A DNA stretch of 64,000 nucleotides from an uncultured virus (IMG/VR IMGVR_UViG_3300034073_001408) (IMGVR_UViG_3300034073_001408), one strand, 5' to 3'; shown: positions 8,768-49,553, counted from the stretch's first letter. Notes: generated by a model from the sequence alone, not told the origin. Program-made: numbers and translations.

Positions 8768-9628
8768 ATGATTCTCGTTGATCTAAATCAAGTTCTCATT
8801 TCAAATCTGATGATGCAGCCAGATGTGCTGAAGTCTTTAGACGAGAATCTGATTCGGCACATGGTGATAAACACTCTGCGCAGTTTCAATGTCAAGTTCA
8901 GCCAAACTTACGGTGAGATGATCATCTGCGCAGATGATAAGAAGTATTGGCGCAAAGACATGTTCCCGTATTACAAAGCAAGTCGCAAGAAAGCTCGTGA
9001 AGAGTCTGCTTTCGACTGGAACGCGATCTTTGAAATTCTCAATCGAATTCGCGATGAATTGAAGCAAAACTTGCCCTACAAAGTCGTTCAAGTTGACAAG
9101 ACTGAAGCTGACGACATCATCGCTACGTTCTGCAACAAGCATGGCGTTTTACTGAAGTCTGCATCTACAGAGAAGATTCTAATCCTATCCAGCGACAAAG
9201 ACTTCATGCAGCTACAGAAGTTCGTCAACGTAGAACAATACAGCCCAATGGCTAAGAAGTTTCTTCGGGCTGATGATCCAGAAAAGTTTCTCAAGGAACA
9301 CATCATTCGCGGTGATCGTGGCGACGGCATCCCGAACATTCTCTCAAATGATGACACGTTTGTGTCAGACGCACGACAAAAACCAGTCACCGAGAAAAAG
9401 CTAAATAGTTGGTTGGAACAAGACTTTGAGTCATTCTGTGACTCAACTATGCTTAGGAATGTCAAGCGAAACGAAATGCTTATTGACTTGAGCAAAGTAC
9501 CAGATGAGTATCAAGAAAAGATTCTTAGTGCGTATGACACTGCTCCAAAAAATGGACGCGACAAACTGATGAACTACTTTATCAAGAATCGCATGAAACA
9601 ACTAATTCAACATCTACAGGAATTTTGA
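8768..9628 (+). CDS. rnh: T4-type RNase H (5'-3' exonuclease)
   Basis: MILVDLNQ, YYKASR, EADDIIA, SSDKDFMQL and GDRGDGIPN motifs. Confidence 0.95.
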   Translation: MILVDLNQVLISNLMMQPDVLKSLDENLIRHMVINTLRSFNVKFSQTYGEMIICADDKKYWRKDMFPYYKASRKKAREESAFDWNAIFEILNRIRDELKQNLPYKVVQVDKTEADDIIATFCNKHGVLLKSASTEKILILSSDKDFMQLQKFVNVEQYSPMAKKFLRADDPEKFLKEHIIRGDRGDGIPNILSNDDTFVSDARQKPVTEKKLNSWLEQDFESFCDSTMLRNVKRNEMLIDLSKVPDEYQEKILSAYDTAPKNGRDKLMNYFIKNRMKQLIQHLQEF

Positions 9629-9635
9629 TACAACT

Positions 9636-10091
9636 ATGGCTAAAATTGACGTTAGTAAAATGTCACTACCTGAAATCATGCAACATGTTTCAGACTTGAC
9701 TAATGAAGATCGACCAGTCGCGATGCAAGCGATTTCTAGACTAAGACCAGACTTCAAGGCTGCGATACAGCTAGTGTTCGTTGACGGCATTCAGATTGAC
9801 TTGCCAGCGGGTGCGCCGCCTTACAAGAAACTTGACATGCCAGAGAATTGGGGCTATAATCGTCTTCCACGAGAGTTGAAGAAGATGCATTACTTCATCA
9901 AAGGATCAACGAGTAATCTAACGAAAGCTAAGAAAGAATCAATGTTCATTGAAATGTTGGAGAGTTTGTCGCCTCAAGAAGCAAAGCTACTCATTCAAAT
10001 CAAGGACAAGAAACTTGAATACAAAGGCATCACAAAACGCTACGTAAAGAAAGCGTTTCCCGAATTTTTTCCAGGAGAAAAAGAAGAGTAA
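9636..10091 (+). CDS. Conserved T4-like protein (DUF6433-like)
   Basis: LPAGAPPY..KESMFIEMLESL..EAKLL..IKDKKL; follows rnh. Confidence 0.65.
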   Translation: MAKIDVSKMSLPEIMQHVSDLTNEDRPVAMQAISRLRPDFKAAIQLVFVDGIQIDLPAGAPPYKKLDMPENWGYNRLPRELKKMHYFIKGSTSNLTKAKKESMFIEMLESLSPQEAKLLIQIKDKKLEYKGITKRYVKKAFPEFFPGEKEE

Positions 10092-10097
10092 AGGACT

Positions 10098-10283
10098 ATG
10101 GCAAAAGATAAGACACGCAAGGGATTTCGTGAATACTATTACGAAGAAGATGATTTTCGCCCTAAGAAGAAGCGCATGGATGAAAGTGCCAAAGAAAAAA
10201 TGAGAGCGCGTGACAAGTTGAAGCGATTCGATCCGAAGAACTATGACGAAGATGAACTTTATGACGATGACTACTTGAACTAA
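10098..10283 (+). CDS. Small charged hypothetical protein
   Basis: AGGA RBS, operon context. Confidence 0.55.
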   Translation: MAKDKTRKGFREYYYEEDDFRPKKKRMDESAKEKMRARDKLKRFDPKNYDEDELYDDDYLN

Positions 10284-10292
10284 GGAAACACA

Positions 10293-10490
10293 ATGAACAA
10301 AACCACAGCAGCTATGATTTTGATTGTTGCGCTAATTGTTGCAATTGTCAGCCCACTTTTGCTGATCTGGAGTATAAATACTCTTTTCACAACTGACATT
10401 CAATATGGGTTCTATGAGTGGCTAGCCGCATTGTTCCTGATAGGATCACTGAAGGGCAGCATGTTGAAGTTCAAGCCGAATTCTGACTGA
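10293..10490 (+). CDS. Small membrane protein
   Basis: Two hydrophobic helices; AAGGA RBS. Confidence 0.6.
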   Translation: MNKTTAAMILIVALIVAIVSPLLLIWSINTLFTTDIQYGFYEWLAALFLIGSLKGSMLKFKPNSD

Positions 10491-10515
10491 AGAGTCTTCA
10501 AGACTCCAAAACAAG

Positions 10516-10543
10516 AAAGAGGCTCAAAGAAGCCTCTTTTTTT
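10516..10543 (+). terminator. Rho-independent terminator
   Basis: AAAGAGGCT-loop-AGCCTCTTT followed by a T run. Confidence 0.8.
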
Positions 10544-10578
10544 ATTGTTGTGAAAAAGAGACAAGACGAAAAAAACTC

Positions 10579-10707
10579 TTGACGGATCAGCATCATTCAA
10601 TGTATACTGTGTCTGTTGAGTGAGAGAAAGAAGAAGGAAAGACTGACTGACTAAATCAGTCAAGAATTCAAAAAGCTCTTGACAGTGTGCTGATTCTGAT
10701 GTATACT
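10579..10707 (+). promoter_or_regulatory. Tandem sigma70-type promoters for the tRNA cluster
   Basis: TTGACG-18-TATACT at 10579 and TTGACA-17-TATACT at 10679. Confidence 0.75.
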
Positions 10708-10760
10708 GTCTTCAACGCTGAGAAATCAGCACCGATCTTTAAAAAGTAGCGTAGTGTTTT

Positions 10761-10835
10761 GCCCTTATCGTCTAACGGTTAGGACGCCAGATTTTCATTC
10801 TGGTAATCGGAGTTCGATTCTCCGTAAGGGTACCA
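10761..10835 (+). tRNA. tRNA-Glu(TTC)
   Basis: Cloverleaf, CCAGA-TTTTCAT-TCTGG anticodon arm, encoded CCA. Confidence 0.92.
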
Positions 10836-10913
10836 TATTGAAGCGCATTGTTCGAACCCGAATCAGCAATGGCATTGCAAAGGTTTAATTGCATAGTGTG
10901 CTTCAATATGGTA
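10831..10913 (+). ncRNA. CCA-anchored stem element 1
   Basis: TACCATATTGAAGCGCATTG pairs with TAGTGTGCTTCAATATGGTA (20 bp, G-U wobbles only). Confidence 0.7.
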
Positions 10914-10922
10914 AGAATAATT

Positions 10923-11011
10923 GGGTTCTGCCCCTTACGGCGGACTGTAAATCCGTTGGCATTGTTTTGTAAGGAAGTTGCCTCGTGGAGCGTTACCATC
11001 AGAACCCACCA
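10923..11011 (+). tRNA. Non-canonical tRNA-Tyr(GTA)-like RNA lacking a D-arm
   Basis: GGGTTCTG/CAGAACCC-ACCA acceptor, GCGGA-CTGTAAA-TCCGT anticodon arm, long variable arm. Confidence 0.65.
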
Positions 11012-11021
11012 AGAAAATCGT

Positions 11022-11112
11022 ATCACCATAGTTTAACGGTAAAACAGCGGATTTATACCCCGTAGCGCCAGATAAGCGGCTGATCTGGGTTCGATTCCCG
11101 GTGGTGATACCA
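11022..11112 (+). tRNA. tRNA-Ile(TAT) with long variable region
   Basis: ATCACCA/TGGTGAT-ACCA acceptor, TTTATAC loop, TTCGATT T-loop. Confidence 0.75.
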
Positions 11113-11306
11113 TTTAGTTTGCTGATATCGAAAATACCTGTGCGATCCAGGTCAGTGCGTTGTCTATGTTGTGGATGGTACCTTACAAGCAACACGCAGT
11201 TCTCTCTGACGAAAAACGGAGTAGCTACCTAAAATAAGTCGGTGAGATGAAAAGCAAACAACTACGGGTTAACGTAGTTCATAAGATGTCAGCAAACTAA
11301 ATGGTA
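11108..11306 (+). ncRNA. CCA-anchored stem element 2 (~200 nt)
   Basis: TACCATTTAGTTTGCTGATATC pairs with GATGTCAGCAAACTAAATGGTA (22 bp); internal hairpins. Confidence 0.7.
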
Positions 11307-11308
11307 AA

Positions 11309-11385
11309 GGGCTGGTAACTCAGTTGGTCAGAGTAGCCGACTCATAATCGGTTAGTCGTCGGTTCGAGCCCGACCCAGCCTACCA
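11309..11385 (+). tRNA. tRNA(CAT), Ile2 or elongator Met
   Basis: GCCGA-CTCATAA-TCGGT anticodon arm, CCA. Confidence 0.88.
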
Positions 11386-11392
11386 AATATTT

Positions 11393-11467
11393 GGTCTCAA
11401 AGTGTTCATGGACGCACACGAGCCTGTCACGCTCGAAGAAGGGGATCGTTACCCCTTGGGACCGCCA
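11393..11467 (+). tRNA. tRNA-Asp(GTC)
   Basis: CGAGC-CTGTCAC-GCTCG, G discriminator, CCA. Confidence 0.88.
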
Positions 11468-11473
11468 GATTAT

Positions 11474-11547
11474 AGCGGGATAGAGAAACGGTAACTCAAG
11501 AGTCTCATAAGCTCTAGATCCTGGTTCGATTCCGGGTCCCGCAACCA
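11474..11547 (+). tRNA. tRNA-Met(CAT), initiator-like 1:72 mismatch
   Basis: AGCGGGA/TCCCGCA-ACCA acceptor; CTCATAA loop. Confidence 0.85.
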
Positions 11548-11548
11548 A

Positions 11549-11556
11549 TATAAATA
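11549..11556 (+). promoter_or_regulatory. T4-type late promoter
   Basis: TATAAATA directly upstream of tRNA-Phe. Confidence 0.5.
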
Positions 11557-11558
11557 TA

Positions 11559-11634
11559 GCCGCTATGGTGAAGGTGGTCCTCACGCTGGTCTGAAGAACC
11601 AGAGAACTCTGATCGTAACAGAGTGGCGGCACCA
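11559..11634 (+). tRNA. tRNA-Phe(GAA)
   Basis: CTGGT-CTGAAGA-ACCAG, CCA. Confidence 0.85.
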
Positions 11635-11641
11635 AGATTTA

Positions 11642-11715
11642 GGGTCTTTAGTTTAATGGTAGAACTCTTCTTTTACACGGAAGATACGGCAGTTCGATTC
11701 TGTCAAGACCCACCA
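11642..11715 (+). tRNA. tRNA-Val(TAC)
   Basis: CTTCT-TTTACAC-GGAAG, CCA. Confidence 0.9.
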
Positions 11716-11723
11716 AATACAAT

Positions 11724-11798
11724 AGGTCTTTAGTTCAACGGATAGAATAACAGGCTACGAACTTGTAGGTGGGAGTTCGATTCTCTCAAGACCTGCCA
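11724..11798 (+). tRNA. tRNA-Arg(ACG)
   Basis: ACAGG-CTACGAA-CTTGT, CCA. Confidence 0.9.
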
Positions 11799-11806
11799 AA
11801 GATTTT

Positions 11807-11883
11807 CGGAGTGTAGCACAGCCTGGTAGTGCGCCTGGTTTGGGACCAGGAGGTCCAAGGTTCGATTCCTTGTACTCCGACCA
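11807..11883 (+). tRNA. tRNA-Pro(TGG)
   Basis: CGGAGTG start, CCTGG-TTTGGGA-CCAGG, CCA. Confidence 0.93.
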
Positions 11884-11891
11884 GTATTATA

Positions 11892-11981
11892 GGAAGCGTG
11901 GCAGAGCCCGGTTTATTGCAACAGTCTTGAAAACTGTCGAACAGAAATGTTCCGTGTGTTCGAATCACACCGCTTCCGCCA
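11892..11981 (+). tRNA. tRNA-Ser(TGA)
   Basis: ACAGT-CTTGAAA-ACTGT, long V-arm, GCCA end. Confidence 0.92.
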
Positions 11982-12033
11982 ACAAGATAAATAGATGTAA
12001 ATTTTCAGAAAAACTAAAACAAAGGAAGCTAAA

Positions 12034-13620
12034 ATGGCTGTAGCAGACACCAAAGAACTTGCACAATGTTTGGCATTTGCTTACTTTGCTGAGTATCCAA
12101 ATTATCCAAAAGATGACAAGAAACTAACGTCTGAACATGCAACAATGTTTTTTGAGTTGTTTTCAAGAAAATCGTCTATAGCTACATTAAAGCAAAAATA
12201 TCTGTCAAAGAATTTCCCTACAGAAAAAGTTAAAGACGAGTTTAAATATACTAAAACGCAAGTCACTAAACAAATCAGTTATAGTGAAACTGCAAAAAAA
12301 GTATACAATGTCGTCAAAGAGTGTATACGCAAAAAAATGTTTAAGTATTCTATGGACGAATACGTCTTTCTTGATCAGGGTGATGATTTTACAATTAAGA
12401 TCAAGGACGAATTGATGAAGAGGGCTTTAAGAAATTTTGGTTTTGCTAACACCATAAAGCCAGATACACTGTCATCAATAGATGTATTTTGCGTCAGACG
12501 ATCTAAGAAAACAGAAATCATTAACGAATGCACTAAACTGTTTGGCGATGATGTCAGTATGATTAACAACTTCGTCAGCGGAACAGACTATGCAGAGTTT
12601 ATTGGCAAGCACATGGACTCTGGTAATTTGATTCCAGTGTCATTAAAGTTGCCGAGCACTATTTCTGGTAACATACACGTTAAAGAAATTCATGATATCA
12701 ACAAAAGACCGATATCAGAGAACACTGATCCTTACATAAAATTTCTAGCGACGATTTTGGACAATCCATCAAAAACCAAAAACATCATCGATAGCGTAAT
12801 CGATCTCAAGATAGATGATGTTGTTTCTTTTGAAAAGTTGAATTGGGAACTTCCAGTCTCGTTTAACTACACCAAATACATTGATCCGCAAACTAAGCAG
12901 AAGATAGCAGAATACAATTTAGAGTTTAATCTATTTGCGCAAGGATACGGAGCTGGATTTAATGGTCAGTTTGCAGCATCTACAAAAAAGTATAAAAATA
13001 CTCAGTGGGTAGGTGGAATAGGCGCAAATACATTTTATGTCATGGCAAAAAAATATGCGAAATTCAATGAATTCATGAGAAAATTGAGTGATCTTAGATT
13101 AGACTGTCTGAAATCTATAGCAGATAAGATGAGCAAAGCTGATGAAGAGGCGTTCAAAAAGTGCTCAGCATTATATGCCAATGCACAAAAAAATGTAAAA
13201 AATGATATGATACATTCATCGAATAAAGAAGAAATTCAGTTGTTAGCTTTCTTTGCCCAATTCGATAGATTGTACAATAATAAAGAAAACTTTCTAGAAA
13301 ACTATAGACTATCTGTCATAAATGCAATAAATGGAAAGAGTAAAATCCTAGCCAATTACACTGATATGAAAAGATTAAAAGCTCATTATGTTCATGCTCA
13401 ATTGTTTTATCTTTTTTTAATTGGTGGTAAAAATCTAGAGTTGTACTTTAAGCAAAAAATGTTTTTATCCATTTTTGGTTTGATAACAAAAATGGCACAC
13501 ATATATTTTGACGAGAGCGATTATGACAAGATGAAAACAATTGTGACTACTCAATTGAATAAGCAGAGAGAAGGTTTTTTTGCTGAATTTAGAACTGCTC
13601 CTCATTTTTTGATTTCTTGA
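12034..13620 (+). CDS. Hypothetical protein, possible PD-(D/E)xK endonuclease
   Basis: 528-aa AT-rich ORF within the tRNA cluster; SSIDVF..LIPVSLK motif; AAGGA RBS. Confidence 0.6.
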   Translation: MAVADTKELAQCLAFAYFAEYPNYPKDDKKLTSEHATMFFELFSRKSSIATLKQKYLSKNFPTEKVKDEFKYTKTQVTKQISYSETAKKVYNVVKECIRKKMFKYSMDEYVFLDQGDDFTIKIKDELMKRALRNFGFANTIKPDTLSSIDVFCVRRSKKTEIINECTKLFGDDVSMINNFVSGTDYAEFIGKHMDSGNLIPVSLKLPSTISGNIHVKEIHDINKRPISENTDPYIKFLATILDNPSKTKNIIDSVIDLKIDDVVSFEKLNWELPVSFNYTKYIDPQTKQKIAEYNLEFNLFAQGYGAGFNGQFAASTKKYKNTQWVGGIGANTFYVMAKKYAKFNEFMRKLSDLRLDCLKSIADKMSKADEEAFKKCSALYANAQKNVKNDMIHSSNKEEIQLLAFFAQFDRLYNNKENFLENYRLSVINAINGKSKILANYTDMKRLKAHYVHAQLFYLFLIGGKNLELYFKQKMFLSIFGLITKMAHIYFDESDYDKMKTIVTTQLNKQREGFFAEFRTAPHFLIS

Positions 13621-13628
13621 CGCTCACT

Positions 13629-13702
13629 TCCGGTGTAGTATAATGGCAGTGCGATGGTCTCCAAAACCATTAGTGGGAGTTCGATTCTCTCCACCGGAGC
13701 CA
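13629..13702 (+). tRNA. tRNA-Trp(CCA)
   Basis: ATGGT-CTCCAAA-ACCAT, GCCA end. Confidence 0.9.
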
Positions 13703-13713
13703 AACAACAACAT

Positions 13714-13791
13714 GCGCAGATGGCAGAGTGGTCCAATGCACGGGATTGCAAATCCCGAAAACCGTGGGTTCAAATCCCTCTCTGCGCTCCA
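13714..13791 (+). tRNA. tRNA-Cys(GCA)
   Basis: CGGGA-TTGCAAA-TCCCG, U discriminator, CCA. Confidence 0.88.
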
Positions 13792-13797
13792 AAGATT

Positions 13798-13871
13798 CCC
13801 TCTTTAGTTAAAAAGTATAACACTGTGCTGATAACGCAGAGTCGGAGGAGCGTTACCTCCCGGAGGGACCA
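13798..13871 (+). tRNA. tRNA-Ile(GAT)
   Basis: CTGTG-CTGATAA-CGCAG, atypical AGCGTTA T-loop, CCA. Confidence 0.8.
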
Positions 13872-13880
13872 AAATCTTGT

Positions 13881-13957
13881 GGTAGAATAGCATAGCGGTC
13901 TAATGCAGCACCTTCATACGGTGAAGATCGTAGGTTCAAATCCTACTTCTACTACCA
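13881..13957 (+). tRNA. tRNA-Met(CAT)
   Basis: CACC-TTCATAC-GGTG, TTCAAAT T-loop, CCA. Confidence 0.85.
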
Positions 13958-13958
13958 G

Positions 13959-13987
13959 TTGACATCTGAGCGTAAACTTTGTATAAT
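13959..13987 (+). promoter_or_regulatory. Consensus sigma70 promoter
   Basis: TTGACA-17 nt-TATAAT, 9 nt before tRNA-Lys. Confidence 0.85.
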
Positions 13988-13996
13988 GATTGCATT

Positions 13997-14071
13997 GGGA
14001 CTTTGGCGTAGCGGTAACGCAGCGGGCTTTTAACCCGTCAGTCTCGGGTTCGAATCCCGAAGGTCCTACCA
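13997..14071 (+). tRNA. tRNA-Lys(TTT)
   Basis: GCGGG-CTTTTAA-CCCGT, CCA. Confidence 0.92.
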
Positions 14072-14079
14072 AGAACATC

Positions 14080-14155
14080 CTGCCCGTCGTATAAGGGATG
14101 AATACACCGGTCTTCTAAACCGGCAATCCAGGTTCGAATCCTGGCGGGCGGACCA
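14080..14155 (+). tRNA. tRNA-Arg(TCT)
   Basis: CCGGT-CTTCTAA-ACCGG, CCA. Confidence 0.9.
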
Positions 14156-14250
14156 ATAAATAGCTTGATCGGTCGCCTCTTCTGCTGGAATGCATGAGAG
14201 AAGGTCTGAGAGTTCTCTGGCGGCAGCAACACCGGAGTATCGTAACCGGT

Positions 14251-14356
14251 TGCTATATTGAAGCGCATTGTAAAGAACCTCTATGAGGGGAATAAGACAC
14301 TAGGGTGCGGGTCGAGGCAACTCAGTAATAGCCCATCAGTGTGCTTCAATATGGCA
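14251..14356 (+). ncRNA. Stem element 3
   Basis: TGCTATATTGAAGCGCATTG / CAGTGTGCTTCAATATGGCA, 20 bp with three G-U pairs. Confidence 0.7.
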
Positions 14357-14446
14357 TGGTGTAATGAGAATGCACAGGATCGCCACATAAGTCTTCTTTA
14401 ATGTGAAGCAGTGGAACAAGGTTCAGGTACGGTAAAAACCCGTAAT

Positions 14447-14573
14447 GCCATATTGAAGCACACTAAATCGAAAGTATCCTCAGAACAGAAGTGACTGTCT
14501 GGTGAGTATGCAGGTAGAGAGATGTAAAAAGCCCCCGCTGGTCACGGTTATCTCAAGTGTGCTTCCATATGGT
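14447..14573 (+). ncRNA. Stem element 4
   Basis: GCCATATTGAAGCACACT / AGTGTGCTTCCATATGGT, 18 positions with one mismatch. Confidence 0.7.
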
Positions 14574-14703
14574 TAGAATTGATGGGTGGTTGTAGCGTCT
14601 CCCTTAACTGGTGGCTTGGTAATCAAGGAACTGCATATCTGAAATAGTGATATGAGAAATACAGGTGTAACAGTGATGCTATTGACAGTCAGGAAAGACT
14701 GAC

Positions 14704-14849
14704 ACCATATTGAAGCGCATTCTAAAATCCCGAAACTCTTTTGGCCAAGTCCGGAACTAACCAAAGAGCAACCTGTTGAGACAGGGTAAGATCCGCAAGG
14801 GTGGGATAGTCGTCGGTGCAAGTCCGAAGAGTGTGTGCTTCAATATGGT
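14704..14849 (+). ncRNA. Stem element 5
   Basis: ACCATATTGAAGCGCAT / GTGTGCTTCAATATGGT; four internal hairpins. Confidence 0.7.
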
Positions 14850-14896
14850 AATCATAACTGTGATACAATCCACTATCGGATTGGTAGAGATTGCCA

Positions 14897-15148
14897 TAGT
14901 TCCGAGTCCGAAAGGATTTCGTGTCATATGCCCGACGGCGAGCCAGCGAGTTCATTCTCGTTGCAGTAACCTAGGGCTTATTAATAAGCAGGTGCCATGC
15001 CTCTGACAGATGATCCCTATTCTGTCAAGCACAAATCGGCGAAAAATGGTTGCGTTTTAGTTGTCGGCGCATAACCATCCTCTCTCAAGGCACTCACGGG
15101 TCGTCGCCCTGAAAAAGAAGACACTAGAGTTCCACTTTAGGGAGTGGG
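14897..15148 (+). ncRNA. Candidate multibranched structured RNA
   Basis: Nested pairings GTGTC/GACAC, CGACGGC/GTCGTCG, GGTGCC/GGCACT, TGACAGA/TCTGTCA and a GAAA tetraloop; no credible ORF. Confidence 0.5.
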
Positions 15149-15261
15149 GCTATAGTTCAGCACATTTCTGATGCCTCAGCGAAGGAATTCTAGATGTCCA
15201 GTAGCAATTAATAACGAAGTCAGCAGATGGGTTCACTGAATGAAGTGTGTTGAACTATAGC
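15149..15261 (+). ncRNA. Stem element 6 (covariant)
   Basis: GCTATAGTTCAGCACATTTC / GAAGTGTGTTGAACTATAGC, 20 bp. Confidence 0.65.
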
Positions 15262-15283
15262 GAATTATATTAGGAGATGCATC

Positions 15284-15661
15284 ATGACATTGAAAAACTT
15301 TGAGATAGCTGAAGAATACTTGACACAAGTTGTAGTACATGAAGAGGTGAAGTTCACTAACTTCACGCCCATGGGATCTATGACTCAAGATCAGATTGAC
15401 GCCATGAATGAAATGATGGATAAGCCGCTCAAAGTTACTCGGTGGATTGATCATCCAGAATTCACTAAGCTGAGAGAGCAATTAGAAATTGAAGGATACA
15501 TCAAAATTCAACGTTCTTGGTGGAACGGAGACAGAGTTCTACGGTCGTTCAAAGTGAATGGAATAACTCTCAAGAAAGACGGCACGTTCTACTGTGCAGC
15601 AGCACTTGGAAACAGCATTTCTGTAGCACGTAGTATGGGCAGAAAAACGATTGGATTTTGA
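15284..15661 (+). CDS. Hypothetical protein
   Basis: AGGAG RBS, 125 aa. Confidence 0.65.
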   Translation: MTLKNFEIAEEYLTQVVVHEEVKFTNFTPMGSMTQDQIDAMNEMMDKPLKVTRWIDHPEFTKLREQLEIEGYIKIQRSWWNGDRVLRSFKVNGITLKKDGTFYCAAALGNSISVARSMGRKTIGF

Positions 15662-15669
15662 TTCTGTTG

Positions 15670-15677
15670 TATAAATA
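15670..15677 (+). promoter_or_regulatory. T4-type late promoter
   Basis: TATAAATA upstream of the lysis pair. Confidence 0.7.
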
Positions 15678-15709
15678 CATACACTATAAAACGTGTATGG
15701 GAGACAACA

Positions 15710-16204
15710 ATGGAATTTCTTGGAGAATTTCTTGGAAGCGGTATCATAGGAAGCATCTTCGGCGGCTTGTTCAGAATGTTTCCTGAAGTATTGAAGTTCT
15801 TTGATCGTAAAGATGAAAGAGCGCATGAACTAAAGATGTTCACACTTCAGACAGAAGTCGAGAAGATGAAAGGTGACTTCAAGCTAGAAGAACGATATGT
15901 AGATCATGGCATTGAACAAACAAAAGCAATCGCAGATGCGTTCAGAGGTCAGAGCGAAGAAGCGAGCAAGAGTTACAAGTGGGTCAGTGCACTAAGCGCA
16001 CTAGTTCGCCCGATGGTGACTTATACTCTATTTGGACTCTATGTCGCTTATAAAGTCATCATGGTAACTTATGCGATTCAGACAGGTGCTGGATGGCAAG
16101 AAGTCGCTAAAGAGAACTGGACAGTAGAAGATTTTGCAATGTTGAACATGATTCTAACTTTCTGGTTCGTTGGTAGAAGTATTGAGAAGCGCGAGAAGAC
16201 ATGA
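15710..16204 (+). CDS. Holin-like membrane protein
   Basis: Hydrophobic N-terminus, SALVRP..FWFVGR pattern; adjacent to lysozyme. Confidence 0.65.
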   Translation: MEFLGEFLGSGIIGSIFGGLFRMFPEVLKFFDRKDERAHELKMFTLQTEVEKMKGDFKLEERYVDHGIEQTKAIADAFRGQSEEASKSYKWVSALSALVRPMVTYTLFGLYVAYKVIMVTYAIQTGAGWQEVAKENWTVEDFAMLNMILTFWFVGRSIEKREKT

Positions 16205-16674
16205 AAGATGCCATTCGTATTGCAACAGACGCGCTAATAAAGCCATTTGAGGGTTATCATAGAAGACTACCAGACGGCTCTGCGCATGCGTATCCTGATC
16301 CAGGAACGGGCGGTGCGCCTTGGACAATTGGCTGGGGCACTACAGGATCTGGCATCGGACCAGACACAGTGTGGTCGCTAGATCAATGCGCAACAGCACT
16401 CGAAAAGCACGTTCAACAGTTTGCATTGGGAGTGCTTGATCTAAGTCCAAACTTAGAGTATGCGCTGCCGAGAAGATTTGCTGCGATCATTAGTTTCGCT
16501 TACAATTGTGGGCTTGGAAACTATCGCATAAGTACACTGCGCAAGAGAGTAAACGAAGAAGATTGGGAATCAGCAGGAAGAGAAATTCTACGCTGGAACA
16601 AAGCAGCGGGAAGAGTCTTGCCTGGTCTAACAAGACGCAGGAAAGCAGAGTCTTTGATGTTGATTTCCGTGTGA
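16201..16674 (+). CDS. Endolysin (GH24 lysozyme)
   Basis: FEG..AYPDP..WTIGWG, SFAYNCG and GLTRRR motifs. Confidence 0.92.
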   Translation: MKDAIRIATDALIKPFEGYHRRLPDGSAHAYPDPGTGGAPWTIGWGTTGSGIGPDTVWSLDQCATALEKHVQQFALGVLDLSPNLEYALPRRFAAIISFAYNCGLGNYRISTLRKRVNEEDWESAGREILRWNKAAGRVLPGLTRRRKAESLMLISV

Positions 16675-16697
16675 ATATATAGTATAATACAGATTAT

Positions 16698-16772
16698 TCC
16701 GGAGTAGCTCAGCGGTAGAGCAGTTGACTGTTAATCAATTGGTCGTTGGTTCGATCCCAGCCTTCGGAGCCA
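16698..16772 (+). tRNA. tRNA-Asn(GTT)
   Basis: GTTGA-CTGTTAA-TCAAT, GCCA. Confidence 0.93.
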
Positions 16773-16782
16773 TTTTTAAGTT

Positions 16783-16857
16783 GCCGACTTAGCACAGTGG
16801 TAGTGCAATCGCCTTGTAAGCGATAGGTCATCAGTTCGAATCCGATAGTCGGCACCA
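16783..16857 (+). tRNA. tRNA-Thr(TGT)
   Basis: ATCGC-CTTGTAA-GCGAT, CCA. Confidence 0.92.
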
Positions 16858-16870
16858 GTTTTATCATCAT

Positions 16871-16946
16871 GGGGGATTAGCTCATCTGGGAGAGCGCCTG
16901 TTTTGCAAGCAGGAGGTGATCGGTTCGAGTCCGATATCTTCCACCA
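16871..16946 (+). tRNA. tRNA-Ala(TGC)
   Basis: G3-U70 pair, TTTGCAA loop, CCA. Confidence 0.92.
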
Positions 16947-16968
16947 ACTTTTATCATAAGGAATGATC

Positions 16969-17112
16969 ATGGATAATAAACAATACGTATGTGAAGTCTG
17001 TGGGCACGTTCACGACGAAGCAACTATGGGTAAGCTAGAAGACTTGCCAAAGTTCGCTAACTGTCCAGAATGTGGTTCAGACGCAAGAGAAGTATACAAG
17101 CTATTCGAATAA
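16969..17112 (+). CDS. Rubredoxin-like protein (47 aa, absent from ORF track)
   Basis: MDNKQYVCEVCGHVHDE..DLP..CPECG; AAGGA RBS. Confidence 0.8.
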   Translation: MDNKQYVCEVCGHVHDEATMGKLEDLPKFANCPECGSDAREVYKLFE

Positions 17113-17140
17113 TTTAAATAATTGATTTTGAGGATAATAT

Positions 17141-17599
17141 ATGGCCACACAATCTCTAATCATAGCAAATACCAGTCCAACTGTTGAAGTTTATAGAATT
17201 ACAGATGGCGCAAACTCATATATTATCGCTCAAGATGGAGCATCTACAAGTAATCCTACTGCACTTTCAATACAAGTTGATTATACTGATGTTCTAGAAA
17301 GAATTGCTTCACATTTAGAATCTATTGCAACTTCAGCGCTATATCAAGCAACAGATGTTGGCATTATCAAAAATCAGATTTTAGAAATAACAACTAGCTT
17401 AGATACAGTTGCATCTAGCATAGACTTACTAAAAGATACTTCTAATACAAGTGCACAACATTTAGAAACTGTAGCTGCACATTTTGAAGTTGAAAGAGCG
17501 ATGAATGTTGCCGATTTGAAAGAACCAGACTTTTATGAAGAGAACTTCGACAAGTTCAATACAGTGAAAACAGAAATCAATAATCCGACACAATTCTAA
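17141..17599 (+). CDS. Hypothetical protein
   Basis: GAGGA RBS, 152 aa. Confidence 0.65.
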   Translation: MATQSLIIANTSPTVEVYRITDGANSYIIAQDGASTSNPTALSIQVDYTDVLERIASHLESIATSALYQATDVGIIKNQILEITTSLDTVASSIDLLKDTSNTSAQHLETVAAHFEVERAMNVADLKEPDFYEENFDKFNTVKTEINNPTQF

Positions 17600-17605
17600 C
17601 AAGTC

Positions 17606-17679
17606 GCGGGATTGGTATAGTGGTTGTGCCCTAGCCTTCCAAGCTAGTGAGACCAGTTCGATCCTGGTATCCCGCTCCA
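17606..17679 (+). tRNA. tRNA-Gly(TCC)
   Basis: GCGGGAT start, CTAGC-CTTCCAA-GCTAG, TCCA. Confidence 0.92.
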
Positions 17680-17692
17680 CTGAGATGCAATC

Positions 17693-18184
17693 ATGAACAT
17701 ACAAATTGATATAACCGAAGTGAAAGAGTTCATAGAAAGACAGTCTCCGGAGACTCGCATCTACATTGGTGGAGACTCTGAGCGTATTCTCATTAACAAT
17801 CAATGGTACGCCGATTACACACTTGCTGTAGTCGTCCACATTGACGGTAAGCATGGCTGTAAAATCTTCGGTGAAGTTCAGCGCGAACGGGACTTCGAGA
17901 AGAACAAGAATAAGCCAAGAATGCGGCTGATGACTGAAGTCTACAAAATTTCAGAGCTATATCTGAAACTTGCTGACGTTTTAGAAGATAGAGAAGTTGA
18001 AATTCACCTGGACATCAATCCCAACGAGCGCTACGGAAGCTCCTGCGTCGTGCAAGAAGCTATCGGTTACATCAGAGGAATGTGCAATGTTGTTCCTATG
18101 ATCAAGCCACGTGCGTTTGCTGCATCATATTGTGCAGATAGACTAAAAGAAATCATTGACATGCGCAACAAGATTGCGGCATGA
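17693..18184 (+). CDS. RNase H-like YkuK (DUF458) family protein
   Basis: IYIGGDS..RLMTEV..EIHLDIN..AASYCAD motifs. Confidence 0.8.
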   Translation: MNIQIDITEVKEFIERQSPETRIYIGGDSERILINNQWYADYTLAVVVHIDGKHGCKIFGEVQRERDFEKNKNKPRMRLMTEVYKISELYLKLADVLEDREVEIHLDINPNERYGSSCVVQEAIGYIRGMCNVVPMIKPRAFAASYCADRLKEIIDMRNKIAA

Positions 18185-18189
18185 GTGTT

Positions 18190-18274
18190 GCGAGTGTGGT
18201 GGAACGGTAGACACAGCGGGCTCAAAACTCGCCGCCTAAACAGCATGAGGGTTCGAATCCCTCCACTCGCACCA
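18190..18274 (+). tRNA. tRNA-Leu(CAA)
   Basis: GCGGG-CTCAAAA-CTCGC, long V-arm, ACCA. Confidence 0.92.
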
Positions 18275-18277
18275 GAG

Positions 18278-18640
18278 TCAGTCGTGACTTTGTTCTGAAC
18301 GTCTTTTGCGTCTTCCGATAATGTCTTTGAATACAGTATGGGCTAACATAGCCATAGCGATCAGAGAGACCATAAGATTTGAGAGCGTCTCTGAGAATAA
18401 GCTGATGTTCCAATAGCTGATAGGAAATTGTGGACCTATTATATACTGAAATAATATCGCGAATGCATTTAAAAGACTTGCTAAGCCGACGTACCATAGT
18501 GGAGTAACGTGCCAATGTGGTAAATGTCTAGCATGCATTGCGACATAAAATGCGCCTATAAATGTAAGCGAATGTGCAAAAAAATTGATTGGTAATTGTA
18601 AATTATGATTATTCAAAAGTAGTATTACGTCTGTAATCAT
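18278..18640 (-). CDS. Membrane protein (3 TM, basic C-terminus)
   Basis: Hydrophobic helices; coupled to the upstream gene. Confidence 0.65.
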   Translation of the reverse strand: MITDVILLLNNHNLQLPINFFAHSLTFIGAFYVAMHARHLPHWHVTPLWYVGLASLLNAFAILFQYIIGPQFPISYWNISLFSETLSNLMVSLIAMAMLAHTVFKDIIGRRKRRSEQSHD

Positions 18641-18957
18641 GATTTTATATCTTTTACTGCTTCTACTATATCTTTATCTTTATATTTCACAAGTAAATTT
18701 GCTACCATACCTAAAACGCTATATGCTAAAAAGCCTATAACAAATCCCATCATCAATTGATTTTCCCAATTATTATCAAAATTCAGCTTTTCTATAATCG
18801 GTGACGCGAACACTGTTGCACTACCAACTGAGACGCCTCCGCGAAGAAATGCTTCACCTATGGTTGTAGGTCGTATGTATGTTAGAATAGCAGCGCCGCC
18901 AAATAAACCACCCAACATTGACGCTACCTTTGCTGTTAGAAAACCTGGCTCGGGCAT
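18637..18957 (-). CDS. Membrane protein, holin-like
   Basis: Three TM segments; AGGAG RBS; TATAAATA on the minus strand at 18989-18996. Confidence 0.65.
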   Translation of the reverse strand: MPEPGFLTAKVASMLGGLFGGAAILTYIRPTTIGEAFLRGGVSVGSATVFASPIIEKLNFDNNWENQLMMGFVIGFLAYSVLGMVANLLVKYKDKDIVEAVKDIKS

Positions 18958-19299
18958 ATATGCAAACTCCTAAACGAAAAATCTCTGTTATTTATACAGA
19001 ACGAATTCTTGATTCCGTTGCCTTTTCGACACAAGCATAAAGACACTACGCTTTACTCAAGTATTGTTCTTTGATATACTGACTGTGTTGAGTTGATGAG
19101 GTGAACGAAATGCTTCCACGCTGCTACATGATGTTCCTTGAAGAAGTCTTCGGTTCAGTGAACGCTGAAAAGATCGCTCAAGTCTGGTATCGGTTCTCTC
19201 AGATCCAACTGTCTTCTGCATCTCGCGAAGAAATTGTTTTTGAAGCAAAATGTATTGCCCGACGCATGAGTCTGGCGTAAATTCTTAAAGGAGTTCGAC

Positions 19300-19506
19300 G
19301 TGCTTACTGCAAGTTTTATGTCTGCCGATTGGCAGTTTCGCGATGAATTTAAAGTGAAATCTGAATTTGAAAAAAGTTTCATTGGATTTGTTGGCATTGA
19401 TCCTATAGATGCTCCTAGCACGATTGCGGCGGGCTATCACATTAGCTGGAAGTATTTGCCCAACGAAGATAAGTATCTAGTTCTTCCCGCATGTGTGATG
19501 AGGTAA
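19300..19506 (+). CDS. Hypothetical early protein
   Basis: AAGGAG RBS, GTG start. Confidence 0.5.
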   Translation: MLTASFMSADWQFRDEFKVKSEFEKSFIGFVGIDPIDAPSTIAAGYHISWKYLPNEDKYLVLPACVMR

Positions 19507-19574
19507 AATTTCAGATTTTGTGGTACAATACAGTTCGAATGACAGTTTTCTAAACACAAACTTCGAACATCAAC

Positions 19575-19982
19575 ATGGTAAACGCAATCAAGATTAAATG
19601 TCGCCGCTGCAACGGCAACGGCTTTCTCAAAGGAATGGTTGTTGTTTATGCTGGTGCGCCCGGCGGATGTTTCGCTTGCGCTGGATTTGGAGAAGTCTAC
19701 AAAGACAAGTTCCATCGTGCATTTGGTGTTGGCAAGAAGTTCTATGGTATTACCTGGTCACGATATCTCAATCCCGACAATCCAAACAACGGCGTTTTCA
19801 AGATGATGTCAACCAAAGTTCCAGAATTCATCGGAGAGCGTACGGATTTTCGCGGCCGTGTGACTGAAATCATCGAGTACACAGAAATTACAGAAGAACA
19901 AGCTCGAAAGTTCTGGAGTCGATATGGAATCCTCACTCAACTCGGCGGAGTTCGTGTAGCTGATTTTGTTGTTGATCGTTAA
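19575..19982 (+). CDS. Hypothetical protein with two CxxCxGxG motifs
   Basis: CRRCNGNG and CFACAGFG. Confidence 0.6.
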   Translation: MVNAIKIKCRRCNGNGFLKGMVVVYAGAPGGCFACAGFGEVYKDKFHRAFGVGKKFYGITWSRYLNPDNPNNGVFKMMSTKVPEFIGERTDFRGRVTEIIEYTEITEEQARKFWSRYGILTQLGGVRVADFVVDR

Positions 19983-20058
19983 CTTCGATAAAACACTACG
20001 CTTTACTCAAGTATTGTTCTTTGATATACTGATTGTGTTGAGTTGATGAGGTGACAAG

Positions 20059-27453: not shown

Positions 27454-28128
27454 CTAGATCAATCCTTTTTTCAATATTGACCTAAAATGAACAGCATATC
27501 CTCCAGGATCCATCATTTTATTGCAATGAACACACAGAATCGATTTCTTCTCTCTCATTTCAGCGATACTTTGAATATGCTTATTTCTAATCTCTTCATC
27601 AAACATAGGATTCTGAACTTTCATTCTTTCAGAACTCGCCCGTGATCTATCGTATTCACATTCAAACTTTTTATGTTCTCTCAATTTACTTATTCCGTCG
27701 CGCCAATTAGGATTTTTATCGCCCCTCTTGTCTGGCTGATTATGTTTCATTTTTTGTTTAGTTTCTTCTGAGTGTTTTTTTCCATAAAATGGATTATTTG
27801 ATCCAGAATTTCTCTCTGAGTTTGCTAATCTATGTTCTTCTGTGCATATCCAACTTCCACCATCACCGTGTTCTGGTTTTAGATTAGCCCAATTTTTTGA
27901 ATTTACAACATCCCACAGTTCACTATAAAATTTTCCCCAATATGCAATTTCATCATTCGTATCACACTCTTTCAAAATTTCAGTCGTTACATCATAGCCA
28001 TGATGCTTGATATGATTATTCCAATATGTGCCAGAACCTTTATACAGATGCGGATTTTTTGAAGATGTTTTGCCCAAATACTTTAGTCCAGTTATGTTAT
28101 GTGTCTTTACGTATAGATATATAGACAT
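27454..28128 (-). mobile_element. GIY-YIG (Seg-like) homing endonuclease with NUMOD3-like repeats
   Basis: IYLY..GLKYLGKT..YKGSG; NPFYGKKHSEETKQKM; AT-rich and antisense to its neighbours. Confidence 0.88.
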
Positions 28129-41630: not shown

Positions 41631-41858
41631 ATGAACGAAAGACTTCTAAACATTTGCAAGAAACTTGAGGCTGAGTCAAAGTTATACTGCGTTGATGGAA
41701 CTGAATTTGACTTGCAGAAAGACTCGCACAAATTTTTTGCTGAATTCTTCTACGAAGAGATTGTAAATGAGTGCGTTAATGTTATAATGAATAGCACAGA
41801 TAGGCATAGGAAAGAATACTTCGCTGGTCTGCTGAGAAAAGAACTAGGAGAAACTTGA
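41631..41858 (+). CDS. Divergent MNERI-family protein
   Basis: MNERL..FFAE..IVNEC. Confidence 0.6.
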   Translation: MNERLLNICKKLEAESKLYCVDGTEFDLQKDSHKFFAEFFYEEIVNECVNVIMNSTDRHRKEYFAGLLRKELGET

Positions 41859-42712
41859 TTGAAAGAACTGTTATGTTTAAGCTAAAAGAATACCACAAAG
41901 ATCAACATTGGAACCGCTATGCATTCAATGTGTCCAATCCATATGAATACTATGAGGGTCGCGATGGTGAACGCGGCACTAATTGGTGTATGCTAAACAT
42001 CGCCTTTGGTAAACACTCTTGGTGGTGGCAGATTCCCGAAATCTTCAAGCCACGCAAGAAGTGGGTAGATACCAGCAAATATGAGTGGTCAAAGAATCCT
42101 CGTGGTGGATATTGGGAACACATTCGCCGTGAGTACGGGTTCACTATCTCAGAAGATAACATCCATCTGCACTACGGCATTCAACCTGGATGCTGGTCTT
42201 CAAGAGACAAGAAGAACTCCGACCATACCAAGCTGTTTGGTATTCCTTGGTTGCAAAAGCGATACATCCATGAGAAGTTCTACACACCAGACTGGAGAGT
42301 ATTTGGTGTCTGCACGCCTCTGAAGAGTGGCGGACTGGACTTTGATTTGCTCCATAAGATCAAAGACATGGTTCCGAAGATCAAGTTTCGGTTCAATGAC
42401 TTTGACGGTGAAGAAATCATCGCCACTTGCTACATCAGCGAGATGCGGCACGAACACGGAACTAGTTGGTTCAAGTGGTTGAAATATTTCGTAAAGCCTC
42501 TAATTACTCGCCGACTTGATCTTGAGTTCAGCAAAGAGATTGGATACGAAAAAGGTAGCTGGAAGGGCGGCACTATGGGCCACTCTGTTGAGATTGAATA
42601 TGGAGAAGATCCAATGCAAGCATTCATTCGATATGGAACATCTGAAGATAGTTACAAGAATCATGGAACGAAGAATCGTGGATTCACTAACATTATGAGG
42701 ATTGAGTTATGA
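41855..42712 (+). CDS. Hypothetical protein (aromatic-rich)
   Basis: 285-aa ORF; AGGAG RBS. Confidence 0.7.
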   Translation: MIERTVMFKLKEYHKDQHWNRYAFNVSNPYEYYEGRDGERGTNWCMLNIAFGKHSWWWQIPEIFKPRKKWVDTSKYEWSKNPRGGYWEHIRREYGFTISEDNIHLHYGIQPGCWSSRDKKNSDHTKLFGIPWLQKRYIHEKFYTPDWRVFGVCTPLKSGGLDFDLLHKIKDMVPKIKFRFNDFDGEEIIATCYISEMRHEHGTSWFKWLKYFVKPLITRRLDLEFSKEIGYEKGSWKGGTMGHSVEIEYGEDPMQAFIRYGTSEDSYKNHGTKNRGFTNIMRIEL

Positions 42713-42899: not shown

Positions 42900-43310
42900 A
42901 TGAGTCAAGTAGTAAGAGCAATTGAAGCGCACGATACGGGTAATCGTAAAGTTATCAGAGATGGGTTTTCTCCATTGTTTCAAGATGTCTTTAGTGTAAA
43001 ATCAGAAATTCGCGAAGATCCAATGCCCTTGGCTACGGAGTATCGTATCGGTGTGACTATTGGTTCTAAGGTGATGGTTGAACAATCGTCAATGCGTGAA
43101 CATCGTAATGAGTTGGTGCCGAACAATAAAAACTTCAACTGGGAACTTCATGAAGCAATCTTACGAACAAAGAGACAAGTTATTGAAGCAATCTTTGGTG
43201 AGTTTCGCACAGACTTCAAGATGATTGAACGTGCCCTCTATGATCGTGATTATCAGAAAGCACGAGATTATCTTCGTGTTTTTGAAGACAAAATGTATAA
43301 TGGAGTATAA
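42900..43310 (+). CDS. Hypothetical protein
   Basis: Coupled start. Confidence 0.6.
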   Translation: MSQVVRAIEAHDTGNRKVIRDGFSPLFQDVFSVKSEIREDPMPLATEYRIGVTIGSKVMVEQSSMREHRNELVPNNKNFNWELHEAILRTKRQVIEAIFGEFRTDFKMIERALYDRDYQKARDYLRVFEDKMYNGV

Positions 43311-43311
43311 T

Positions 43312-48893: not shown

Positions 48894-49214
48894 ATGAACA
48901 TAAACAGAATAGCCGTCGCAATCATTGTCACTATCACGTTGACAATGATGTTCTATATGAAAAATGCTAAGGCCGAGCCTATGCAGTTGCAAAAGATTGT
49001 TTTTTGTGATAAACTAGAGAAAGTGGTATCAACTTTATCAAAAGAGTATGATGAAAAACCACTGTGGGCAGGCAAAGATGATGCGACTCAGTATGCTATT
49101 ACATATAATGAAAAAACAAAATCTTGGACTATCATTCAATTTGACAAAGACATAGCATGCATTCTAGGTACAGGTGAAGCTGGTCATCTGATATATTTTC
49201 CAAACTCAGTTTGA
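48894..49214 (+). CDS. Exported hypothetical protein
   Basis: Signal/TM N-terminus; C..CILGTG. Confidence 0.6.
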   Translation: MNINRIAVAIIVTITLTMMFYMKNAKAEPMQLQKIVFCDKLEKVVSTLSKEYDEKPLWAGKDDATQYAITYNEKTKSWTIIQFDKDIACILGTGEAGHLIYFPNSV

Positions 49215-49220
49215 TAAATA

Positions 49221-49530: not shown

Positions 49531-49553
49531 ACAACGAATGAGAGAATATCAAA

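Follow-up and report, generated by a model that had tools for sequence, protein, structure and literature searches.

Why should a phage tRNA cluster carry long inverted repeats that begin on the CCA ends of its tRNAs? The question is raised by a 64,000-nt stretch of DNA from an uncultured virus (IMG/VR IMGVR_UViG_3300034073_001408), referred to here as the window, in which an earlier note made from the sequence alone had described six such repeats, each enclosing a different RNA (the cargo). The window derives from a T4-like phage, as indicated by Pfam matches to gp32, gp59, T4 RNase H, a T4 baseplate protein and PhoH, and ARAGORN detected 20 tRNAs and a permuted transfer-messenger RNA (tmRNA) in it. 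Judged by gp32 (about 55% identical), its nearest cultured relatives are Methylophilales phage Melnitz, Pelagibacter phage Mosig and cyanomyophages. The repeats form stems, here called stalks, which are RNA helices on the tRNA strand under selection and constitute a large family restricted to phage tRNA clusters. Their bearers are a group of uncultured T4-like phages, and their contents are modular and interchangeable, as the earlier note had supposed.

Inverted-repeat search recovered all six repeats where they had been reported. Read base by base, the stems comprise 18-24 pairs each and, summed, 108 Watson-Crick pairs, 13 G-U pairs, one A-C and three other positions. The differences between the arms had been described as nearly all G-U wobbles, which is borne out by 13 of the 17 non-Watson-Crick positions; the proportion of 13 G-U to one A-C agrees with the further claim that selection acts on an RNA helix of the + strand and not on a DNA palindrome. 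Single-hairpin folding, which covered five of the hairpins and left out 11108-11306, revealed each of them to be more stable than 200 of 200 shuffled sequences (z -3.6 to -6.1). Hairpin A, with a minimum free energy (MFE) of -35.4 and a z of -6.07, contains 19 Watson-Crick and 4 G-U pairs and no A-C. No terminator-like site of the + strand was found at any of the six hairpins, and no U-tract terminator follows them.

As the arms in 14251-14849 alternate, the pieces between the hairpins are likewise flanked by complementary arms (I3: 20 nt, 100% complementary). The alternative, in which a 3' arm would pair with the 5' arm that follows it and enclose the piece in between, was disfavoured by the fold of 14156-15270 as a whole (1115 nt), in which all four hairpins of this region were present in both the MFE and the centroid structure. 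It is also contradicted by relatives, as the module at 14574-14703 occurs in locus L068 without an upstream arm. Relatives and the long fold thus favour the order of 5' arm followed by 3' arm originally proposed. Two of the stems had been said to begin inside the NCCA of intact tRNAs. ARAGORN places the ends of tRNA-Glu and tRNA-Ile(tat) at 10835 and 11112, so that the stems starting at 10831 and 11108 indeed begin on the discriminator base and CCA.

Anchoring on CCA ends holds across the family. Pairing from the CCA end over 18 positions was scored independently of any motif for 1717 distinct phage tRNAs with an encoded CCA end. At least 16 of the 18 pairs were present behind 137 of these tRNAs and at least 17 behind 117, compared with 11 of 1717 at 16 pairs and 0 of 1717 at 17 or more in a reversed-arm control. 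At loci found through a DUF458 protein and not through the motif, a stem was located on 68 of 1091 tRNAs, and 34 of the 45 clusters with at least ten tested tRNAs carried at least one. A 16-mer arm pattern matched at least 122 stretches of viral contigs; among the matches listed, a partner arm lay within 260 nt in 91 of 122 viral stretches versus none of 120 bacterial or archaeal stretches, only three of which contain any tRNA. In all 86 viral loci that could be oriented by their tRNAs, again among the matches listed, paired arms run 5' then 3' on the tRNA strand, some arms being unpaired, and a called tRNA supplies the CCA on which 48 of 123 distinct elements begin. Five complete relatives (160-171 kb, with terminal repeats) have paired arms in the tRNA cluster only, the remaining arm matches being single and at control level.

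No CCA stalk was found in the five tRNA regions of cultured phages that were examined. DLP6, BUCT-ZZ01 and BUDD gave 0 stalks among 90 CCA-ending tRNAs and T4 none on its four; Mosig has three tRNAs and Melnitz four, and the six ends tested of these seven all lacked a stalk. In the cultured-phage collection, megablast of the 5.2-kb region returned only tRNA-Pro patches, and blastn of hairpin C at E<=10 only three chance-level matches. At the gathering score Rfam recognised only tRNA and tmRNA, and at E<=5 nothing that overlaps the hairpins. In the literature covered, which did not extend to subscription-journal papers on T4 tRNA processing, no account was found of hairpins anchored on CCA ends in the tRNA clusters of phages. 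The statement that the elements belong to no named family is upheld by these searches.

The 117 CCA-anchored stems, picked for complementarity, contain 2006 Watson-Crick, 215 G-U, 43 A-C and 76 other positions, and each of positions 4-17 shows three or four Watson-Crick pair types. Compensatory change is present in the stem: in 43 hairpins from protein-found loci, 11 of 18 pairs had changed on both sides (84 cells). Their covariation score was 0.380 compared with 0.179 after shuffling, a value reached by 0 of 500 shuffles, and sliding the partners by 1-3 columns lowered pairing to 34-52%. CCA lies opposite UGG in 112-116 of the 117 stems and N73 opposite U in 94. Among the 84 stems of the major class, 21 different forms of the outer 7 nt occur (UAUUGAA 37 times, the rest being AACAAAA, UAUAAAA, UAUUAAA, AAUAAAA and others), and the inner 7 nt read GCACAUU or ACACAUU in 40. 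The commonest 5' arm is CCAUAUUGAAGCACAUU, with variants such as CCAAACAAAAGCACAUU, and an A-C mismatch is fixed in the stalk variant found behind tRNA-Lys (15 of 117). The other stalk classes have only ACCA...UGGU in common. The constant handle of the earlier note thus has to be given up, as the outer 7 nt covary freely and only CCA/UGG, which is fixed, and an inner RCACAYU/ARUGUGY, which is better conserved than the outer part, are kept.

What could such a stalk do? The reading we put first, and to which we would give about an even chance, is that of a leader/trailer stalk for processing, with host RNase III as the probable nuclease; it would free the 3' end of the tRNA and excise or protect the enclosed RNA. 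A polycistronic tRNA precursor would carry stalks of about 18-21 bp as processing and boundary elements, with a 5' strand starting on the discriminator base and CCA of whichever RNA precedes it, a tRNA or some other RNA with a CCA end, and a 3' strand ending in UGG(U) right before the next gene or overlapping its first two bases. The stalk would be cut by an endonuclease specific for double strands, host RNase III being the most plausible one. This would release the tRNA on the upstream side, with the break at or close to its CCA, and excise the loop contents. The leftover stem would shield the excised RNA from exonucleases and, where a tRNA follows, the RNase P cut there would set the other boundary. 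We infer that the stalk is cut, by which enzyme, and that cutting matures the CCA end.

The precursor setting is supported by the position of the hairpins inside units driven by sigma-70-like promoter matches: two tandem sigma-70-type promoter-like sites closely precede the cluster's first tRNA, and a terminator-like site at 10513-10542 ends the unit before it. On the 3' side, 27 of 113 hairpins reach into the first bases of the following tRNA, and a further 27 stop 1-12 nt short of it. The same device also surrounds a real tRNA. In relatives, 15 of 52 tRNA-His genes, located behind tRNA-Lys, lie inside a leader/trailer helix with at least 11 of 12 pairs; this helix measures 12-16 bp and includes the tRNA's own CCA (e.g. 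at the tRNA-Lys/tRNA-His junction of L131, L135, L156 and L166). Such enclosure is rare for other tRNAs (Asn 3/77, Met 2/151, Tyr 2/59).

Several observations weigh against the processing stalk. At one tRNA-Thr/tRNA-Met junction, L153 has no insert (CCA-AT-tRNA) and L166 a similar short spacer, and 11 of the 45 DUF458-centred clusters with at least ten tested tRNAs are stalk-free; because such clusters and junctions exist, the stalk must be dispensable for tRNA maturation as such. No tRNA lies within 40 nt downstream of 59 of the 113 hairpins. RNase III (PF14622) was detected in none of the five complete relatives with a control profile that was positive in 8 of 14 known genomes, nor by Pfam among the 66 open reading frames (ORFs) of the window, and since the complete relatives encode none, the enzyme would have to come from the host. 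The conserved inner part together with a U-G wobble suggests specific recognition that goes further than the known needs of RNase III. Finally, the stems of both the 117 and the 43 set were selected for complementarity, so that the percentage paired is circular; for this reason the weight rests on the changes at both sides, the asymmetry of G-U and A-C and the reversed-arm control.

The enclosed RNAs are a mixture of some conserved structured RNAs, a few of tRNA origin and many short ones with fast turnover. The stem at 11108-11306 is no variant of the handle; it closes an RNA (11109-11305) that belongs to a conserved family of its own, F200, which measures about 200 nt and has ten members, seven of them behind tRNA-Glu. 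Compensatory change affects 22 of its 33 consensus pairs and 15 of the 21 bp of its stalk; ACCA/UGGU is retained in 8-10 of the ten members, and the conserved unpaired blocks are GGAAAAUUCC, AAUAAG, UAAAAGCAAAC and AUAAC. The window member has no Rfam match at E<=5. A reading of the block AAAAGCAAACGA as a tmRNA-like tag was rejected, as frame and first codon vary among the ten members. The hairpin C cargo has five homologues (window, L046, L126, L086, L014) with 39 consensus pairs, six of them compensatory, and hairpin E has one distant homologue (L058, 72.5% identity) in which both sides changed in 6 of 39 pairs. Relatives hold further cargo families of seven, five and four members, and 61 of 137 hairpins are without a relative among the rest (E<=1e-3). 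In the window, the cargo of hairpin V is partly similar to one in L051, and that of hairpin A has no relative among the related loci compared.

Between hairpins C and E, the module at 14574-14703, which ends with a hairpin of 5 bp and a 7-nt loop followed by the ACACCA that opens hairpin E, is 91% identical in L068 and 84% in L106, and in L068 it sits after tRNA-Asp and before a stalk with a different cargo. The spacer at 14156-14250 and the piece at 14357-14446 have no relative among the related loci compared, and the stretch at 14851-15148 shows only short patches of similarity to other loci.

One can tentatively extend the processing stalk to a standard plug-in cassette, although we consider this doubtful. 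One CCA-anchored leader/trailer helix with a conserved inner part for recognition would make use of tRNA processing to express and mature a changing repertoire of small RNAs, including tRNA mimics and folded, conserved RNAs such as F200, and the turnover would come from conflict with host systems by which tRNAs are attacked or sensed. Such conflict would explain why stalks are found mainly behind tRNA-Glu(ttc) (30 of 90 in the DUF458-found loci), tRNA-Gln(ttg) (27 of 50) and tRNA-Lys(ttt) (21 of 57), a bias that may also reflect inherited gene order and not independent events.

The variability of the cargos could also mean that the loop contents are largely irrelevant. According to this view, which we regard as unlikely, the stalk is an uncut clamp or insulator: a stable hairpin that would sequester CCA until single-strand nucleases and RNase P act, let adjacent RNAs fold independently of each other and stop exonucleases that work from 3' to 5'. 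The pairing does extend to N73 and CCA in most stems, and cargo length ranges from 23 to 128 nt (123 elements). Folded alone, 232 cargos are barely more structured than shuffled sequences (mean MFE z -0.57; 23 below -2, 78 above zero) and hardly differ from their reverse complements (mean -0.40), so that the claim of hairpin-rich cargos holds only weakly for the class as a whole. At the tRNA-Thr/tRNA-Met junction, whose flanking tRNAs are 80-100% identical, the contents differ widely among relatives: the variants include a hairpin with another outer stalk, hairpins with other cargos, and a pair of additional tRNAs ahead of a different stalk hairpin, and the gaps between the same flanks measure 13-14, 92, 109-111, 134 and 304 nt. 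Behind tRNA-Gln, the cargos of 30-76 nt are mostly dissimilar to each other, and many cargos look more like short, arbitrary loops in rapid change than like structured RNAs. Against the clamp, some cargos (F200, C, E) are clearly conserved with compensatory changes. Bacterial tRNA 3' maturation includes exonucleolytic trimming, and a hairpin holding the CCA would impede it unless cut. Moreover, stalk-free clusters show that tRNAs need no insulator: 814 of the 1717 tRNA junctions are shorter than 15 nt, and short AU-rich spacers are usual elsewhere. As a separate observation at the junction behind tRNA-Gln, a conserved mini-ORF of 6-7 codons (MKRSGKR/MKRAKR) with a strong Shine-Dalgarno-like AAGGAG follows the hairpin in L148 (about 1690-1740), L143 and L142, with a conserved non-coding stretch and a tRNA downstream.

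The sequence conservation within the stalk brings a third explanation into play, to which we assign a rather low probability, slightly below that of the clamp. The inner stalk would dock a phage or host protein in the manner of Y RNA and Ro60, and the loops would be effectors (tRNA mimics, decoys or sponges), perhaps directed against defences that target tRNAs. This would fit an inner 7 bp kept as GCACAUU/ACACAUU in 40 of 84 stems next to an outer 7 bp with 21 forms, and a U-G wobble which adjoins the last pair in 59 of 117 stems and stands at a fixed place in 99 of 123 elements. It would also fit the preference for tRNA-Glu, -Gln and -Lys, which are targets of several anticodon nucleases, as far as this preference is not inherited gene order. 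Strict T-arm hairpins, of which there are 19 in 17 of 237 cargos, several of these being real tRNAs in over-long pairs, point in the same direction: none was found on the reverse strand and 0.1 were expected from shuffles. About ten lie in genuine non-tRNA cargos, six of them 0-1 nt from the 3' arm. Within the window, no cargo has a T-arm hairpin by the strict rule; the hairpin E cargo ends in a T-arm-like hairpin adjoining the 3' arm. A docked protein is disfavoured by the lack of a candidate: no TROVE/Ro60 gene was detected among the 66 window ORFs or in the five complete relatives (control positive in 2 of 14). In addition, the YrlA motif GNCGAAN0-1G is absent from the stalk variants, and the classes F200, F190, F87 and F115 share no inner motif. 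A hammerhead-like reading of cargos with CCGAAC...GAUGAG was rejected, as the motif order around the hairpin is wrong by eye and Rfam is silent.

Presence or absence of inserts and exchange of cargos at the same tRNA-tRNA junction might instead reflect events at the DNA level. The repeats would then be palindromes of a mobile insert resembling miniature inverted-repeat transposable elements (MITEs) or associated with homing, or a recombination hot spot for shuffling cassettes, with RNA folding incidental. An arm sequence common to otherwise diverged phages would suit this, as would genes of the homing-endonuclease type (a NUMOD3 ORF at 27454-28128 of the window, a Seg-like gene in Rhizobium phage RHph_I1_18). 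We nevertheless consider it very improbable: mismatches are biased by strand (215 G-U versus 43 A-C), copies are not dispersed, with pairs confined to the tRNA cluster in the five complete genomes, copies in the same genome share arms and not interiors, no target-site duplication was seen at the junction compared, and empty sites look like an ordinary CCA-AT-tRNA spacer. Least probable of all is that the elements are fossils of tRNA genes which once had leader/trailer stalks like tRNA-His and now drift, functionless. In its favour are the vestiges of T arms that stack on the 3' arm in some few cargos, the stalk-enclosed tRNA-His (15 of 52) and the fast cargo turnover; opposed to it are compensatory change that keeps stalks over wide divergence, several conserved non-tRNA cargos and the absence of any tRNA remnant or cloverleaf from the window hairpins (10836-10913, 11113-11306 and 14156-15261; ARAGORN and the Rfam tRNA model RF00005 at E<=5).

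The window offers one further protein of interest, the product of a DUF458/YkuK gene located inside the tRNA cluster. Among homologues with 72-100% identity, at least five tRNAs lie alongside in 68 of 80 viral loci, nearly all co-oriented, and in Rhizobium phage RHph_I1_18 the gene (L327 97-645) adjoins annotated genes for a CCA-adding enzyme, tRNA-His guanylyltransferase, RNA ligase and polynucleotide kinase. The product may be a tRNA-processing or repair nuclease of a family described as uncharacterised (PMC3985635). We rejected it as a dedicated partner of the stalk because the cultured phages DLP6, BUCT-ZZ01 and BUDD carry the gene and have no CCA stalks; the consensus hairpin occurs in only 29 of the 80 DUF458 loci.

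Features of the window's tRNA cluster (positions counted from the first nucleotide of the window; arms with their inverted-repeat numbers, found by inverted-repeat search)
Feature	Position	Strand	Basis and remarks	Arms
Promoter-like site 1, TTGACG-18-TATACT	10579-10608	+	10/12 match to sigma-70-type consensus only
Promoter-like site 2, TTGACA-17-TATACT	10679-10707	+	11/12 match to sigma-70-type consensus only
tRNA-Glu(ttc)	10761-10835	+	ARAGORN; Rfam tRNA 63.3 bits; ACCA end forms first pairs of hairpin A
Hairpin A, major-class stalk, arms UACCAUAUUGAAGCGCAUUG... / ...UAGUGUGCUUCAAUAUGGUA, cargo ~45 nt	10831-10913	+	Fold and inverted repeat	I12: 10831-10847 / 10897-10913
CCA-ended tRNA-Tyr-like RNA, GUA in 7-nt loop, odd T loop AGCGUUA	10922-11012	+	By eye; weak
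tRNA-Ile(tat), 91 nt	11022-11112	+	ARAGORN; Rfam 56.6 bits; ACCA end opens next stalk
F200 member, 21-bp closing stalk ACCA to UGGU	11108-11306	+	Family alignment	I1: 11108-11129 / 11285-11306
tRNA-Met, begins 2 nt past F200 stalk	11309-11385	+	ARAGORN
Non-tRNA spacer RNA, tRNA-Arg(tct) to hairpin B	14156-14250	+	No tRNA/Rfam call; fold z +0.13
Hairpin B, major-class stalk, start GCUA not NCCA, 66-nt cargo	14251-14356	+	z -5.07; 17 Watson-Crick, 3 G-U	I8: 14251-14270 / 14337-14356
Between-hairpin piece ending ...AAUGCCA, CCA opens hairpin C	14357-14446	+	Fold z +0.47
Hairpin C, major-class stalk, conserved 91-nt cargo	14447-14573	+	5 homologues including window; fold	I19: 14448-14464 / 14556-14572
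Conserved ~125-nt module between hairpins C and E	14574-14703	+	Relatives; fold z +0.18
Hairpin E, major-class stalk, 114-nt multi-helix cargo	14703-14850	+	Fold z -4.53; homologue in L058	I21: 14704-14719 / 14834-14849
298-nt stretch between hairpins E and V, without tRNA or long ORF	14851-15148	+	ARAGORN; ORF scan
Hairpin V, stalk variant GCUAUAGUUCAGCACAUUUC / GAAGUGUGUUGAACUAUAGC, outer part compensated	15149-15261	+	z -3.82; 18 Watson-Crick, 2 G-U	I6: 15149-15168 / 15242-15261
DUF458/YkuK RNase H-like gene inside tRNA cluster	17693-18184	+	Pfam PF04308, E 3e-18

Some of the remaining RNAs of the cluster deserve mention. The RNA at 10922-11012 folds with a 9-bp closing stem and a z of only -1.0, was called by neither ARAGORN nor Rfam, and resembles a tRNA for Tyr (anticodon GUA) that lacks a normal D arm. 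Unusual T loops, A(G/U)CGU(U/A)A in type, which replace UUCGAAU, occur at 10922-11012, 11393-11467, 13798-13868 and 14225-14250, and the same type was found in tRNA-His of relatives. A long tRNA (88-97 nt) called as Ile(tat) recurs across related phage clusters and in the cultured phage DLP6. The tRNA cluster is interrupted by an ORF of 528 aa at 12034-13620 in a region of low G+C content (35.6% over 12001-14000); neither Pfam nor PHROG gave a match for it, and none of the 122 motif-found loci contains a homologue. Further away, a permuted tmRNA gene of the two-piece type at 49187-49571 (Rfam tmRNA_permuted 143.5 bits, beta_tmRNA 102.7 bits) encodes, according to ARAGORN, the tag ANDAYFGDLRLAA. 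Two window ORFs match Pfam families of defence inhibitors, namely the CBASS inhibitor Acb3 (41855-42712, E 9e-48) and the Thoeris inhibitor Tad3 (43225-43833, E 2e-32).

A phage tRNA cluster is commonly taken as a list of tRNAs, and here about 1.1 kb (14156-15261) and two further elements are other RNA, arranged around a repeatedly used helix that takes hold of tRNA CCA ends. The family of 117 stems in the loci examined offers a handle on the maturation of non-tRNA RNAs from phage tRNA precursors and bears on the purpose of the long-unexplained small RNAs in tRNA clusters of the T4 type. If cargos indeed were decoys or tRNA mimics, an RNA layer would be added to phage counter-defence.

The element matches no described RNA family, and several known systems share part of its organisation. 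It is unlike dispersed palindromes of the REP or MITE type, as its pairs occur only in the tRNA cluster of the five complete genomes and its G-U to A-C ratio is 215:43, and unlike intrinsic terminators, as no terminator-like site was found at the six window hairpins. In murine gammaherpesvirus 68, tRNA-pre-miRNA units have a hairpin directly after a tRNA-like gene, which is freed by the tRNA 3'-end machinery. Here, too, a tRNA would serve as processing handle for a passenger RNA; that virus is eukaryotic, however, and relies on pol III transcripts, tRNase Z and Dicer, whereas the stalks belong to a bacterial setting, their hairpin includes the CCA and their contents are not miRNA-like.

Bacterial Y RNAs (YrlA) are described as having a long stem formed by their ends and a variable, sometimes tRNA-mimicking module, as carrying the motif GNCGAAN0-1G in the 5' strand of the stem, and as occurring in phages too (PMC4201824). 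The long stem made from 5' and 3' ends and the variable module are common to both. The stalks differ in being perfect duplexes anchored on a tRNA CCA, in lacking that motif and any Rfam Y-RNA match, and in the absence of a Ro60 gene from the window and the five complete relatives.

A precedent for the proposed precursor is the tRNA cluster of T4, described as a single precursor from which two RNAs other than tRNAs, species I and II, are also made (PMC2330249). Like these (rnaC, rnaD), the stalk cargos are non-tRNA RNAs in a tRNA cluster and on the tRNA strand, and their position suggests co-transcription. The predicted fold of rnaC has a T-arm adjoining the 3' strand of its closing stem, as some stalk cargos do. 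The T4 RNAs close with short stems, and none of the four CCA-ending tRNAs of T4 carries a long stalk; blastn (word size 7, E<=0.01) revealed no match to rnaC or rnaD in L001-L202 and window 9001-20000.

The R sites of phage T7 early RNA are RNase III processing stems. Leader/trailer helices around rRNAs are described as stems of the same kind (PMC6582327). The stalks depart from such stems in starting on the CCA of the preceding tRNA and ending in UGG(U), in enclosing many unrelated small RNAs with one type of helix and in conserving the sequence of the inner 7 bp, and cleavage by RNase III is, in their case, what we infer. As in the processing stems of 16S and 23S rRNA and of T7, a helix of about 20 bp is formed from both flanks of an RNA within a polycistronic precursor, and this helix covaries, the enclosed RNA being what matters. 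The 18-24 pairs of the stalks and their compensatory changes fit the leader/trailer duplex of about two helical turns that is typical of RNase III stems.

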